64,000 bases of DNA from Octopus sinensis (taxonomy: Eukaryota). Positions 34,261 through 62,609 of the stretch are shown in pieces. The notes beneath the pieces were generated by a model. The model saw only the letters and a list, made by a program, of their open reading frames with translations, did not search any database and was not told the origin of the DNA. How positions within the stretch are numbered: position 1 is the stretch's first letter; every line of letters begins with the position of its first letter. The DNA is taken from assembly GCF_006345805.1 (NCBI RefSeq), contig NC_043007.1, positions 6,634,001-6,698,000 on the forward strand, written 5' to 3'. A program made the translations under genes and the position numbers.

Positions 34261-34306
34261 CGGATTTATGTATTTGTACAAACGATATATATGTATATGT
34301 GTGTGT

Positions 34307-35250
34307 GTTCAACCGATTTCGACTCGAAAAATTGATCCAACCAAGCTCTCAATGCTGCATGAGTATGAAACGAAATTCCGCGCATATCATTTGAAAGAGA
34401 TCGAAAGAGGTGGAAATCCGTTGGTGCCAAATCAGGAGAGTACGGTGGGTGTGGCAACACTTCCCAGCCATGCATTTGAATGGCTTCCTTGGTCATGTTG
34501 GCGATATGAGGGCGGGCGTTGTGGTGCAGCAGAAGAACTCCATGCTGACGATTAGGTCTTTTCTCTTGAATAGCCGTGTTGAGTCGTTCCATCTGTTGAA
34601 CATAGAGTTCCCTATTGACTGTTTGGTTCCGTTCAAACAATTCGTAATGGATAATCTCTTCCCAGTCCCACCATACGCACAACATCGTTTTACGCGGATG
34701 AGGATATTGTTTCATGCGCGTGTAGCTTGTTTACCGGAGTCAAGCCATTCCTTACGCTGCTTCATATTGATGTACAGGCACCATTTTCCGCCGCCAGGAA
34801 CGATTCGGTAAAGAAGTTGTGGCTTGTGTCCATGAGTTGAGCGGTGACGAGCAAGTAGACCAGCGGAGATTGTGGCTTGTTGATTTTTGTTGTTGTCAAT
34901 TAAAGCATGCGGAAATCATGCTCCACACTTCTGAACATTTCCCATCGAGTGAAGAAACTTCTCTATAGCAGGGTGAAAGCATTCCATTTTCTCTGCCAGT
35001 TCTCTTGTCATTTGACCAGAATTTTCGTGCAAAAGTCGGTTTCATCACTCTTCATCCAACTCAGCTGGACGGCCAGAACGAGATGCGTCTTTGAGGTCAA
35101 AATTTCCAGTTTTGAACTTGGCATACCAATCACGAGCAGTTCTTTCATCTATGGCACCCTCTCCATACACAGCACAAATGTTGTGAGCAGCTTTTGCGGC
35201 CTTAGAAGCTTGATTGAAAGCAAAGAGTAGGCGGTGTCGAAAATGCATCT
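34307..35250 (-). pseudogene. mariner (DD34D) transposase pseudogene
   Basis: ORF 35045-35248 HTH (RHRLLFAF...ICAVYGEGAIDERTARDWYAKFKTGNFDLKDASRSGRP) and ORF 34266-34715 (KTMLCVWWD...LHHNARPH...HPPYSPDLAPTDFHLFRSL); catalytic D changed to H, stops and frameshifts, no TIRs seen. Confidence 0.93.
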
Positions 35251-47490: not shown

Positions 47491-48135
47491 ACTGTCACCT
47501 GAATGTAGAGCTTTTATGATGTTTATTTCTAGATGTATGTATGCATGAATGTATGCACCTATATATGTGTTTGTGTTTGTTTGTGATTGTGTTTGAGTGA
47601 ATGTATATGTGTGAGTGTGTGTGTGTGTAAGAGAGAGAGGGTGGAGAGAGAGAGAGAGAGAGAGGAAATGTATATATATTATATGTATGAAAGATTTAAG
47701 CATAAAATGTAGAGCATAAAAAGAAGTCTTGGAGCGAGTTTTTTGCTAGTTTAAGTAACATATATTACAATGAATATCATCTTTTGTGGCTTGTATTTAC
47801 TTGTTTCAGTCATTGGAGTGCGGCCTTGCTGAGAAACGGACAGCAACAGTTTAGGCGACACAAGTGTAAAATCCTAAGGCGCAGTATTTATTGTATTGGT
47901 GTCTTTTGCCTAACCACTAATTCACACACACACACACACGGTAAAGAAAGTAGCACCGTTGTTGAGGCGTCGGTGAGGGATGAGTAGAAACTCACGCCCG
48001 TATGCACACACATATACACACACTTACACATACACACACACGCATGCACACATATATGGATATATATACATGCATGCACATGCACACACGTACACACACA
48101 CACACATACACACACACACACACATATATAAATAT

Positions 48136-48261
48136 AACTTTTAAAAAAGGACAAAAGAAAAAATTATTTCCATCCCAATATGCTGATAACAGACTTTTAA
48201 ATCGTCTGTTATCAGCATATTGGCATGGGAATAATTTCTCTTTTGCCCTTGTTTGTAAGTT
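48136..48261. repeat. Long hairpin-forming inverted repeat
   Basis: Perfect 20-bp stem 48175-48194 / 48204-48223 with 9-nt loop, extended imperfectly to ~55 bp; the element runs on to (TA)n at ~48353. Confidence 0.8.
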
Positions 48262-48351
48262 GGTTATAATTTTAACCTTTAAATGTATTTTAATATGCTG
48301 CCACTTTTTGATGACATGTTTTCTGAAAAAATAAATTATCCTATATTAATA

Positions 48352-48452
<101 letters not shown>

Positions 48453-52606: not shown

Positions 52607-52798
52607 TATTATATAAAAGGGCTTAGTAAAATAAATTACTTTGCCGCATACTGAACTCATTAGAAATAGCAGCTAAAAAACTTTTTTAAAGCTATTTCTA
52701 ATACTTAAAGAAAATCTCTCTCATATATAGTGTTTGCTTAATTCAACTCACAAAAGTTTGGGGGTAAGGACATCGAAAAATCAAATGCTAAGGTTATT

Positions 52799-52850
52799 TG
52801 AGAACGTACGTTTCAAGATTAGTCAAAACAACACTTCTATCATCAGCTCA
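52799..52850 (-). ncRNA. Hammerhead ribozyme, inverted unit
   Basis: Reverse complement of the motif at 53606-53657. Confidence 0.75.
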
Positions 52851-53605
52851 GAAATTCCTTGGTTTGGATTTGGAAACACTGAAAATAAGAACATACCCTT
52901 TCGAAGATCTGCTCGTAACTAACAGTGCCAACAAATTCAAATAAGCAAGTGAAGAATCTCTGTTCTCCCCCTTCCACCAGCGTGGGTTAAAATCATCAAA
53001 CACTATGCTTATTTCGGTAAAATCCGAAGCATTAATCAGAGGGAGATTAATTATAATTTCAACAATTGAGGGTAAAATTAATTAATTATTAATCAATTTC
53101 ACCAATGTTCAGTATGCAAAGGGACCATTCAAGCGAATTCAAATTATTACATTATATAAAAGAGCTTAGTAAAATAAATTACTTTGGCCGCATACTGAAC
53201 TCATTAGAAATAGCAGCTAAAAAACTTTTTAAAGCTATTTCTAATACTTAAAGAAGTTCAGTATGCGGCAAAGTAATTTATTTTACTAAGCCCTTTTATA
53301 TAATGTAATAATTTGAATTCGCCTTGAATGGTCCCTTTGCATACTGAACACTTGGTGAAATTGATTAATAATTAATTAATTTTACCCTCAATTGTTGAAA
53401 TTATAATTAATCTCCCTCTGATTAATGCTTCGGATTTTACCGAAATAAGCATAGTGTTTGATGATTTTAACCCACGCTGGTGGAAGGGGGAGAACAGAGA
53501 TTCTTCACTTGCTTATTTGAATTTGTTGGCACTGTTAGTTACGAGCAGATCTTCGAAAGGGTATGTTCTTATTTTCAGTGTTTCCAAATCCAACCAAGGA
53601 ATTTC

Positions 53606-53657
53606 TGAGCTGATGATAGAAGTGTTGTTTTGACTAATCTTGAAACGTACGTTCTCA
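53606..53657 (+). ncRNA. Minimal type I hammerhead ribozyme, unit 1
   Basis: TGAG-CTGATGA-T-[AGA/TCT, AGT/ACT]-T-GAAAC-GTAC-GTT-CTCA: stem I TGAG/CTCA, palindromic AACGTACGTT stem III, GUU triplet. Confidence 0.78.
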
Positions 53658-54146
53658 AATAACCTTAGCATTTGATTTTTCGATGTCCTTACCCCCAAAC
53701 TTTTGTGAGTTGAATTAGCAAACACTATATATGAGAGAGATTTTCTTTAAGTATTAGAAATAGCTTTAAAAAAGTTTTTTAGCTGCTATTTCTAATGAGT
53801 TCAGTATGCGGCCAAGTAATTTATTTTACTAAGCCCTTTTATATAATTTAATAATTTGAATTCGCCTTGAATGGTCCTTTGCATACTGACACTTGGTGAA
53901 ATTGATTAATAATTAATTAATTTTACCCTCAATTGTTGAAATTATAATTAATCTCCCTCTGATTAACGCTTCGGATTTTACCGAAATAAGCATAGTGTTT
54001 GATGATTTTAACCCACGCTGGTGGAAGGGGGAGAACAGAGATTCATCACTTGCTTATTTGAATTTGTTGGCACTGTTAGTTACGAGAGATCTTCGAAAGG
54101 GTATGTTCTTATTTTCAGTGTTTCCAAATCCAAACCAAGGAATTTC

Positions 54147-54198
54147 TGAGCTGATGATAGAAGTGTTGTTTTGACTAATCTTGAAACGTACGTTCTCA
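54147..54198 (+). ncRNA. Hammerhead ribozyme, unit 2
   Basis: Identical motif, CTGATGA at 54151. Confidence 0.78.
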
Positions 54199-54688
54199 AA
54201 TAACCTTAGCATTTGATTTTTCGATGTCCTTACCCCCAAACTTTTGTGAGTTGAATTAAGCAAACACTATATATGAGAGAGATTTTCTTTAAGTATTAGA
54301 AATAGCTTTAAAAAAGTTTTTTTGCTGCTATTTCTAATGAGTTCAGTATGCGGCAAAGTAATTTATTTTACTAGCCCTTTTATATAATGTAATAATTTGA
54401 ATTCGCCTTGAATGGTCCCTTTGCATACTGAACACTTGGTGAAATTGATTAATAATTAATTAATTTTACCCTCAATTGTTGAAATTATAATTAATCTCCC
54501 TCTGATTAATGCTTCGGATTTTACCGAAATAGCATAGTGTTTGATGTTTTAACCCACGCTGGTGGAAGGGGGAGAACAGAGATTCTTCACTTGCTTATTT
54601 GAATTTGTTGGCACTGTTAGTTACGAGCAGATCTTCGAAAGGGTATGTTCTTATTTTCAGTGTTTCCAAATCCAAACCAAGGAATTTC

Positions 54689-54740
54689 TGAGCTGATGAT
54701 AGAAGTGTTGTTTTGACTAATCTTGAAACGTACGTTCTCA
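54689..54740 (+). ncRNA. Hammerhead ribozyme, unit 3
   Basis: Identical motif, CTGATGA at 54693. Confidence 0.78.
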
Positions 54741-56363
54741 AATAACCTTAGCATTTGATTTTTCGATGTCCTTACCCCCAAACTTTTGTGAGTTGAATTA
54801 AGCAAACACTATATATGAGAGAGATTTTCTTTAAGTATTAGAAATAGCTTAAAAAAGTTTTTTAGCTGCTATTTCTAATGAGTTCAGTATGCGGCAAAGT
54901 AATTTATTTTACTAAGCCCTTTTATATAATGTAATAATTTGAATTCGCCTTGAATGGTCCCTTTGCATACTGAACACTTGGTGAAATTGATTAATAATTA
55001 ATTAATTTTACCCTCAATTGTTGAAATTATATATATATATATATATGCGTATATGGATATATATATATTGACAGATAGATACATAGACAGACAGACAGGC
55101 AGAAGACCGATCGATAGATAGATAGGTACATGCATACAATCCTTTTTATATGTACAAATTTATTGACATAGATGCACAAATGTTAGTAAGTATATATGTT
55201 TATATGAAATCACAGAAAATGATGCAGTTGTGTAAGTACTGAGAGGATAGATGTGTGGGCCAGAATTGTAAAGGAATTTAAAGGAATTTACATGTTTATC
55301 GTTTACAATCCTAAATTTAGACCCGCTGTACAAGTAGGTTCTTTGGTTAAATCAAACGTTCTTTGACTTAGGAGAGGAATATATTTGAAAACCATTCAGG
55401 TATGTTTGTGCAAATTGAAATCTACAGGAACCCAAACACTCTACGAAGCAATATAATTTAATTTCATAAGAGCAGCAAATACACGTCTATGTTAATACAT
55501 CTTTGAAATGCAATTGACTTTGATGATATCAAAGATAGCATTTTCTGTGGGTGTGCTGTGCTTTAAAGGCAGAATATGTAATGGAAGAAAACGAAATCAT
55601 CTCAGGAAGGTCATCAGAAAGGCATTTCGATCTCCCACTGTCTTATCACTTCATCAATGGCATCAGATTGATATTCTACTAGATGGGTGTTCGCTACACC
55701 GGTGAATGCTATATTCTGTTCCCATATATCTGAGGCAACAAATGTCGTCTTACAATGGGGCTGACTGTGAGTACACGCCATTGATAAATCACAACGTGTC
55801 CAAAATGATTGTGCGGCGGCGACATTCATATTTTCCGATATATGTTCTTAAAATCAGGATATCTTTAAGAGGTAGAGTATCTGGAAAAAGACCGCTTTAA
55901 ATTACGTTTCCATGATATATCTATTGCTATTACAAGAGACTTCTATTACAACATAGGAACAATTTATATGGAACCCGTTATAACAAATATAACATATCAT
56001 GACTTTGTAATCCGCGGCATGTGATCAGAACTAGCATCTAAAGATACATAATACGTTTACGTGTTAGAGATTGGAAGCTTATAGACATTAAACGTCTGGG
56101 AATACTAAAACTATGGGATGCAGAATCAGACTCTCACTATACATAAATATAAATAGTCTACAAAATCGTCCGATTGTTCTCGTGAGATTTCTGCATTCCT
56201 CCATTCGACTCAGTGAGTTGATATTCCTGAAGACAGGCTTCATTCTTATGAGAGCGATTCAGTTAATGAATATTTCATGACATACATATATATTATCATA
56301 ACATGCTCTACTCCGGGGAACGTTTCGGTATATACATTTTGGAAAACTAAATACATGTACATG

Positions 56364-61451: not shown

Positions 61452-61876
61452 CATAGATATATATAATGTATATTTAATATATATATATATAACTAAATAA
61501 ATATATCTATATTTGTGTGTGGGTGTGTGTATGGATATATGTATGCATGCAAAGTCAGCAAATTCTTGCTTCCACATCTTACGTATATCGTTACAAAATG
61601 CAGATAAGTTTGGTGTGAATTTGGTACGTTTGTAGTGGAAAATAATCATTGGAAATTATCATGCACGAAGATGGCGGTGGTTGTGAGGGAAGTCTCCAAT
61701 CATGCACACAAACACACCGAGGCACATACGCACACTCGTACATACAAACATACACACAAATACTTATATACATATGTACATATATAGCGAGAGGATATAC
61801 ATATATATGCATATATATTTATATATCTATCTATCTATGTATCTATGCATCTATCTATATATATATATATAGACCA

Positions 61877-62527
61877 TTGAAGAAATAGCCAAATTTTTGG
61901 CTGCTATTTCTGAAAAGTTCGGTGTGTGGTAAAGTGAATTCTTTTACTTTACCATATTTTTATAAATTAATACTTCAAATATAGCATAAATGGTCTTTAC
62001 ATACCGAATACTGCTTGGTCGAATTTATTAATAATTAATTAATTCGACCCCCTTTTTTGATAACAATATAATGCTTTCTCTCCAAGAATTTGAACTGCAG
62101 TTTTTACCTCTGTAGAAATGTAATGCTCTATGACTCACGTGGGTGGACAGGGAGAATAATAGATCTCATTCGTATTTTTGGATTCGCTAGTACTGGGTGT
62201 CTGACATGGTTTGTCCGATGTTACAGATATCGGACGGGTATGTTTGATTCTTAGTATTTTCAAATCTAAATCAGAAGAAATCTCTGAGCTGATGAAGGAA
62301 AAGTGGCGTTTTACCCACAAATCCAGAAACAGACTGTCCTCGGGTATCGTATATGGATGCGATCTTTCATTGTTTTTTCCCTTATACCTATGTGAGTTAT
62401 TTTTCTGAGTATGCATTGTCTGGAGACTTTTATTTGCAGTTGAAGAAATAGCCAAATTTTTGGCTGCTATTTCTGAAAAGTTCGGTGTGTGGTAAAGTGA
62501 ATTCTTTTACTTTACCATATTTTTATA

Positions 62528-62531
<4 letters not shown>
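61877..62531 (+). mobile_element. 563-bp HHR-containing unit with 92-bp terminal redundancy, within (TA)n; diverged relative of the 541-bp unit
   Basis: 61877-61968 equals 62440-62531; collinear shared blocks AGAAATAGC..GCTGCTATTTCT, GTTC(A/G)GT, TTAATAATTAATTAATT, GGGTATGTT and TCTGAGCTGATGA. Confidence 0.88.
62284..62343 (+). ncRNA. Type I hammerhead ribozyme
   Basis: CTGAG-CTGATGA-A-[GGA/TCC, GTGG/CCAC]-A-GAAAC-AGACT-GTC-CTCGG: stem I CTGAG/CTCGG, GUC triplet. Confidence 0.8.
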
Positions 62532-62569
<38 letters not shown>

Positions 62570-62578
62570 CAGGCTATC

Positions 62579-62609
<31 letters not shown>

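Follow-up and report, generated by a model that had tools for sequence, protein, structure and literature searches.

The stretch of DNA under study, hereafter the window, is a 64,000-nucleotide segment of the Octopus sinensis genome (RefSeq assembly GCF_006345805.1, contig NC_043007.1, positions 6,634,001 to 6,698,000 of the forward strand), in which positions are counted from the first letter. Towards its right end, bounded on both sides by (TA)n-type microsatellite, lies an insertion made of one 563-bp unit (34.8% GC) and an exact 92-bp direct repeat (61877-61968 = 62440-62531; period 563), just as a preliminary description made from the letters alone had reported. This insertion, its parts and two relatives elsewhere in the window are the following.

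61877..62531, plus strand: family B insertion, one 563-bp unit plus 92 bp, 5'-truncated, 3' end at site S1
61881..61911, plus strand: hairpin P1 (AGAAATAGC/GCTATTTCT), with a second copy at 62444-62474
61917..62009, plus strand: long-range helix P2, arms at about 61917-61927 and 61999-62009
62017..62049, plus strand: hairpin P5
62066..62072, plus strand: end site S2, unit position about 194, about 98 nt beyond S1, a terminus in other copies
62071..62439, plus strand: predicted long rod, with the hammerhead as a side branch
62283..62344, plus strand: type I hammerhead motif, read from the sequence
52608..55031, both strands: family A inverted insertion, about 4.4 units in total
48125..48355: short inverted insertion of a third, older superfamily member, without hammerhead

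Helix P2 encloses hairpin P3 (61928-61953), an AT-rich loop holding S1 (about 61968) and a small hairpin, P4, that is mutated in this copy; the predicted fold of the P2 region (61912-62058) has a z of -5.7, and the distal hairpin of the rod, at other loci the target of a site-specific LINE, occupies unit positions 326-343. All ten helix and hairpin motifs previously quoted outside the ribozyme are present, and the hairpin coordinates 53354-53386 and 62017-62049 are exact. The 563-bp unit is non-coding: no sense stop-to-stop frame of at least 100 aa occurs in the A or the B unit, and a 123-aa antisense frame in the B unit has no counterpart in A. At the 5' junction of the B copy (61871-61878), AGACCATT is the reverse complement of unit positions 114-121, which may mark a very small inverted arm or may be a chance match. 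Elsewhere in the window, a 154-aa frame on the minus strand (34266-34730) presumably resembles a mariner transposase fragment.

The A insertion has a minus-strand left arm ending at S1 (52608) and a plus-strand right arm ending at S2 (55031), with the centre of the inversion on hairpin P1 (about 53204-53248). Its unit, previously put at 541 bp, belongs to a family with units of 541-545 bp, of which 545 bp is the majority length. Aligned along the whole unit, A and B are identical in 373 of 516 columns (72%), and blastn relates them at E values of 1e-21 to 1e-9. The third copy in the window, D/K-like (74-75% to families D and K), with an S1-type left and an S2-type right end, came from a profile search of 273 loci in which the 3' module of A and B was also found in further lineages (K, M, H, D and N); from the ribozyme to the module end, these lineages are only 46-94% identical to A. 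Across the 2.72-Gb assembly, exact ribozyme-core patterns gave 298 matches for B, 550 for A and 607 for the mostly A-like C families; looser hammerhead patterns matched at 2434, 113 and 961 places, where the reversed controls matched at 45, 7 and 10, and brought out many more lineages, K, M and H among them. DNA searches yielded family D (about 475 bp; 5275 first-look candidates) and family N (2278 first-look candidates).

Superfamily units, 475-563 bp long and low in GC (33-35%), are dispersed through the genome as short head-to-tail arrays, which reach from about 1 to about 10 units in B, up to about 17 in A and more than 20 in C. A and B are members of one superfamily, spread over the genome, of tandem repeats that carry a type I hammerhead and are inserted in (TA)n. 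The earlier identification as a retrozyme is supported by the tandem dispersed units, the hammerhead motif, the non-coding character and the small low-GC unit, and independent transposition by dispersed copies with ends of their own. Family N carries the same module, and its inverted copies end at 84 and 183 (L239:2090-2272). A separate abundant type I hammerhead family, 'GAAACAGCTGTAAG' (L144-L173; about 2400 pattern matches), lacks the module and ends about 75-100 nt past the ribozyme, in microsatellites; it was left out of all counts.

Each superfamily unit carries a motif that reads as a type I hammerhead. In the B copy, stem I is TCTGAG/CTCGGG, the core CTGATGA stands at 62289-62295 and GAAA at 62326-62329, stem II has an A-A mismatch at its base followed by GGA/TCC, stem III is short and near-palindromic, and cleavage is predicted after the GUC at 62338. 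The change of stem II from AGA/TCT in A to GGA/TCC in B, noticed earlier, is plainly present, and the core and stems are kept in 21 lineages, with covariation in stems II and III. In silico the motif is weak, with fold z values of +0.4 and +1.2. The Rfam check that had been proposed gave no relevant match in the window, the hammerhead being absent at the gathering score across the window and at E<10 over 61800-62600, and viral contigs gave 0 matches to the hammerhead pattern. Eight of nine tested Xenopus retrozyme dimers did not cleave in vitro, according to the available part of one report (bioRxiv 10.64898/2026.07.22.740005).

Read in the hammerhead sense, the 3' ends of the insertions cluster at two homologous sites about 98 nt apart, and the 5' ends are scattered. 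S1 is the AT-rich loop inside P2 (unit 91-108), and S2 lies directly after P5 (unit 192-202, about 194). With the 72 family A 3' ends rounded to these ranges, 33 fall at S1, 37 at S2 and 2 elsewhere; homologous end sites occur in B, D, K and M. Among 62 head-to-head inverted insertions with both ends visible, 44 pair S1 with S2, 2 have S1 at both ends, 2 have S2 at both and 14 have one non-standard end, where ends were classed within 13 nt of a site, families N and H were left out and the D loci, picked by a query ending at S2, are biased towards that site. The pairing is thus S1/S2 in 44 of the 48 insertions with two standard ends, and then in 23 of 23 newly resolved ones, one of which had been retrieved for another purpose; these 23 come from a further 26, the rest being one family B insertion with a non-standard end and two that ran past the examined stretch. 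The A group totals 47 of 49 (p = 2e-12 against 50:50). The A array of the window obeys the rule, and the window B copy is a direct insertion ending at S1.

The 92-bp terminal redundancy (1.16 units) had been taken to fit reverse transcription slightly more than once round a circle. As a signature of rolling-circle copying it was rejected, since the 3' end is a family-wide site and 5' truncation is random, with B arrays of about 1 to about 10 units; in a direct insertion ending at S1, the overlap only shows where the truncation fell. S1 and S2 are themselves most likely start sites of reverse transcription (RT), and the pairing rule suggests that one start site is used at each end of the target. 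Because the two sites lie in and directly after the conserved module, the earlier idea that the fold carries RT-priming signals gains support. A purified Penelope-like element (PLE), predicted to act as a dimer, cuts and extends both strands in vitro and starts RT at two internal sites bounding the genomic 'tail' (PMC11167929); the two fixed ends, their pairing in inverted insertions and the variants shared by all units of an insertion match such a tail and suggest two-site priming on one circle. Most inversion junctions show short overlaps or gaps, and RNA stems were rejected as guides to them, with a match at only 2 of 23 (A 2/17, B 0/6; chance about 3% each).

According to the preliminary description, compensatory changes between A and B point to selection on a branched fold over much of the unit. 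Some of these changes stand, and several of those quoted are one-sided wobble changes. The AGAAATAGC/GCTATTTCT stem is indeed conserved but is invariant between A and B and hence shows no covariation, and of the two changes in P5, the one from G-U to C-G in the GGTCGAATT hairpin is true of the window copy and two other B insertion records at most, 15 of 18 such records having a C-U mismatch there (the changed state is thus found in 3 of 18). The module was examined in a sequence-only alignment of 23 representative copies, in which helices P2-P5 are 81% paired (40% when slid); their 40 double-change cells exceed the shuffled value of 17.9, and none of 500 shuffles reaches them. The register of P3 is off by one in many rows, and its score is low for that reason. 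RNAalifold finds P2 and P5 unaided. Under a tree-aware null, the module shows 9.25 compensatory events against 1.6 ± 1.2, for a structure partly picked by eye from A, B and D. Tests of single pairs found none covarying at E<0.05.

The whole unit was tested in 12 lineages with pairs predicted from A alone and every simulated alignment refolded. Against this null, the rod shows 12 compensatory events (4.5 ± 1.9 expected) and the 3' module 6 (0.9 ± 1.0), neither value being reached in 150 simulations. A and B fold independently into a multi-branch module and a long rod, and the pairs common to the two folds number 45 against 3 in each part (0/150); among the exact pairs common to both predicted folds, 4 in the module and 3 in the rod have changed on both sides. 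L187 and M share the outline of the fold, with fewer exact pairs in common with A. The rod is the weaker part of the structural evidence: in the A-to-B comparison by itself, its double changes fall short of significance, being equalled in 13 of 150 nulls, and its broken pairs are no fewer than in the null. A separate test gives a concordant result: insertion-fixed variants keep 26 pairs and break 15, against 12 kept and 54 broken by singletons (p = 5e-4 pooled), with family B alone going the opposite way, its fixed variants breaking 4 of 5 paired sites. On the plus (hammerhead-sense) strand, G-U exceeds A-C by 55 to 20 pair types, and this strand folds better (z -6.0/-7.2 against -4.1/-2.7), which together point to an RNA of hammerhead-sense polarity. 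In aggregate, the covariation tests support the earlier proposal that much of the unit is under selection for a branched RNA fold.

Substitution divergence is 0.18% within and 1.40% between insertions in B (67 units, 21 insertions), 0.33-0.38% against 0.61% in A and 1.2-1.4% against 6.7% in C-like units, figures to be read with the reservation that assembly or long-read polishing could homogenise neighbouring units. Opposite arms of an insertion resemble each other as closely as tandem neighbours within one arm do, and variants private to an insertion are carried by every one of its units (6/6 at L021, 5/5 at L025, 4/4 at L041). The junction at the predicted cleavage site is without a seam; a ligation scar there was considered and rejected, the apparent one-base losses being due to loci picked by a pattern that selects such losses. 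Clonality within insertions and the seamless junction suggest a single-unit template read repeatedly, most simply a circle, and it is this clonality, instead of the 92-bp overlap, that supports rolling-circle copying; uniform linear precursors or polishing of the assembly could also be its source. The head-to-tail joint is crossed by contigs in three of four sequencing runs, whose RNA type was guessed, none being listed as RNA, and DNA arrays carry the same joint. Runs X1 and X5, RNA by guess, are each dominated by one unit variant, different between the two; a 597-nt contig in X5 goes once round the unit, and the large run X16 is split into many variants.

The insertions show two 3' termini, 5' truncation, head-to-head inversions and an AT-rich target, all features of PLE-type insertion; two papers describe, in their available parts, PLE insertions that are truncated on the 5' side, include inverted copies, target microsatellites and carry a tail of 30-40 bp, often at just one of their ends (PMC8557442; PMC3846280). 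An ORF combining RT and GIY-YIG is absent from the A and B units, which are therefore not autonomous PLEs. Intact young RT plus GIY-YIG elements do occur in the genome (at L103-L110, L101/L102/L111 and L108) and also end in (TA)n. Their 781-aa RT plus GIY-YIG frame, whose linker is CX4CXXC (Neptune-type), is preceded by a further frame of 479 aa to which Pfam gives no match; the 3' region has CCAAT/TGACGTC-rich repeats, the tail, as in the commonest of these elements, is their own and short (about 33 nt), and the element itself shows no hammerhead match. No autonomous PLE with the retrozyme module as its own end was found in 273 loci, nor a PLE partner among ORF fragments adjoining modules, in a partner search that scored 150 of 5029 GIY-YIG candidates and retrieved 32 loci. 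At L103:6480-7591, a PLE copy took about 1.1 kb of 3' flank, containing a family D copy and another repeat, into its upstream pseudo-LTR (3' transduction). At L118:2064 and L274, a family D arm with its end at S2 abuts, in head-to-head orientation and without intervening (TA)n, a 5'-truncated PLE from a different family, and the D arm stops directly beside S1; the arrangement represents a chimeric insertion or else a PLE that integrated at S1.

A 6-kb same-strand spacing in a B array, considered as a partner PLE, turned out to be a LINE insertion. LINEs of 5.3-5.5 kb with AP-endonuclease and RT domains (Pfam), which we take to be L1/Tx1-like, have entered family B at one and the same position (unit 326/329-343) in three independent cases: L318 (G000:C5:48163164-48168666), L012+L320 (C12:75192741 onward) and L319 (C1:62936329). 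A target duplication of 15-18 bp is present at both loci where two ends are visible. The element looks like one that targets the distal hairpin of the retrozyme site-specifically, and nothing was found in the literature on a LINE targeting a retrozyme.

It is likely that these sequences are young non-coding type I hammerhead repeats, a non-LTR retrozyme mobilised in trans by a PLE RT-endonuclease. In the model that we propose, an array would be transcribed, adjacent hammerheads would cut out monomers and ligation would yield circles of about 560 nt, whose P1-P2-P5 module would bind a probably dimeric PLE protein and offer two AU-rich unpaired start sites. The PLE endonuclease would cut both strands of a (TA)n target, one DNA end would prime at S1 and the other at S2 of the same RNA, each RT would circle the template a variable number of times, and the two cDNAs would be joined head to head via short microhomology into an inverted array; extension of one end only would leave a 5'-truncated direct array such as the window B copy. 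To this model as a whole, with its circular RNA, two-site priming by a PLE and inverted arrays, we assign a probability of roughly 0.7, and the low z of the hammerhead, its stem II mismatch, the Rfam miss and the Xenopus dimers count against it, as do the negative partner search in 273 loci, the runs not listed as RNA, the non-significance of every single pair and the noise in the rod. The specific proposal that the P1-P2-P5 scaffold holds two start sites for a dimeric PLE RT, so that both ends of the break are primed on one circle and each is rolled into a multimer, has in our judgement an even chance of being right; if it is, the repeats preserve in the genome the traces of rolling-circle retrotransposition from two sites, and amount to a minimal cis-acting PLE substrate that a site-specific LINE in turn parasitises.

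Circles could be dispensed with altogether if the template were linear, either an uncut multimeric transcript of a uniform array or one monomer copied several times over by template jumping. In vitro, the anole PLE accepted unprocessed RNA and hammerhead mutants still inserted (PMC11167929), the head-to-tail contigs would come from DNA arrays too, and uniform source arrays yield uniform daughters; yet private variants that occur in all units of the two arms require the process to pass through one unit somewhere along the way, the cleavage-site junctions are seamless, and the hammerhead core and stems are kept across many lineages. Retrozymes of mussel, coral and axolotl, moreover, accumulate as circles (PMC7229834, in the part available), and we regard a linear template as unlikely.

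The fold itself would be incidental if the compensated inverted repeats acted or arose as DNA, through cruciforms, palindrome correction or endonuclease recognition, or by antisense self-priming. That G-U is favoured over A-C on one strand only, that the plus strand folds better, that the long-range helix P2 covaries and that no more than 2 of 23 inversion junctions match a predicted stem all speak against these accounts, which we consider improbable, even though the local hairpins P1, P3 and P5 are AT-rich near-palindromes, the window A junction falls inside P1, and inversion-junction palindromes of rotifer PLEs have been read as antisense self-priming (PMC3846280, in the part available). It is more improbable still that the units lack an RNA cycle and are only pseudo-LTRs which an autonomous PLE left behind and which then multiplied in place as satellites: the young copies are dispersed, number in the hundreds and have, at each locus, their own primed ends and clonal arms, a PLE ORF is continuous with the module in 0 of 273 loci, and the sole 6-kb same-strand spacing checked is a LINE insertion. 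Such an origin finds a parallel in Xenopus retrozymes, which are related to pLTRs and for which local tandem amplification is one proposed route (bioRxiv 10.64898/2026.07.22.740005, in the part available).

A search of the open literature, with Dfam, Repbase and subscription journals outside its scope, turned up neither an account of the A/B family nor a retrozyme module that covaries, nor strict pairing of two sites. The earlier remark that no description of this structured family was known agrees with that for the family and its module; the class, non-LTR retrozymes, has already been published. The testable features of that class, as given in the available parts of three papers (PMC7229834; bioRxiv 10.64898/2026.07.22.740005; PMC11722881), are found in the A/B superfamily, and the same parts propose PLE mobilisation of circles and leave the mechanism open. 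Cephalopods are unmentioned in the part of PMC7229834 available and none are sampled in that of bioRxiv 10.64898/2026.07.22.740005; the accessible text of a 2026 octopus repeat annotation reports active Penelope-like families and makes no mention of ribozymes (PMC13282606). How animal retrozymes are copied back into DNA is open in the literature, as are the one-end tails and head-to-head inversions of PLEs. Young insertions of the superfamily number in the hundreds, obey the S1/S2 rule almost strictly, have clonal arms and surround the start sites with a covarying RNA module; the superfamily provides a defined 200-nt substrate and sharp predictions for the existing in vitro PLE assay, and constitutes a new structured-RNA family for Rfam and Dfam.

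The closest likeness is to metazoan non-LTR retrozymes. In the parts of the papers available, these too are non-coding low-GC tandem units, each with a type I hammerhead, are predicted to form highly self-paired circles and coexist with PLEs; the mismatch at the base of stem II is common to the B hammerhead and axolotl HHR_Amex2 (PMC7229834; bioRxiv 10.64898/2026.07.22.740005). The units described here (475-563 bp) exceed the 170-400 nt first described (PMC7229834) and lie inside the range of 51-972 bp (bioRxiv 10.64898/2026.07.22.740005), and the covarying module, defined priming sites, S1/S2 inversions and within-insertion clonality are unreported in those parts. EN+ PLEs (Penelope/Poseidon, Neptune), as far as the available text goes (PMC8557442, PMC11167929, PMC3846280), share 5' truncation, partial tandems, head-to-head inversions, microsatellite targets, a tail confined to one end and the order of a hammerhead followed by two RT start sites, whereas the retrozyme lacks an ORF, has a longer tail (about 98 nt, and about 89-119 nt in sister families, in place of 30-40 nt) and forms whole-unit tandems of up to about 17 (A) or more than 20 (C) units. 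The Chlamys elements, for example MRC1 (PMC8557442, in the part available), resemble it as non-autonomous PLE derivatives with multicopy head-to-tail insertions, but mostly lack hammerheads and have a 3' end like that of an autonomous partner, of which none was found here. Viroid-like circular RNAs and plant LTR retrozymes likewise combine a rod or branched circle with a hammerhead; the octopus repeats differ from them in having a type I and not a type III ribozyme, in lacking LTR, PBS and PPT, and in being integrated in the genome with PLE-type ends.
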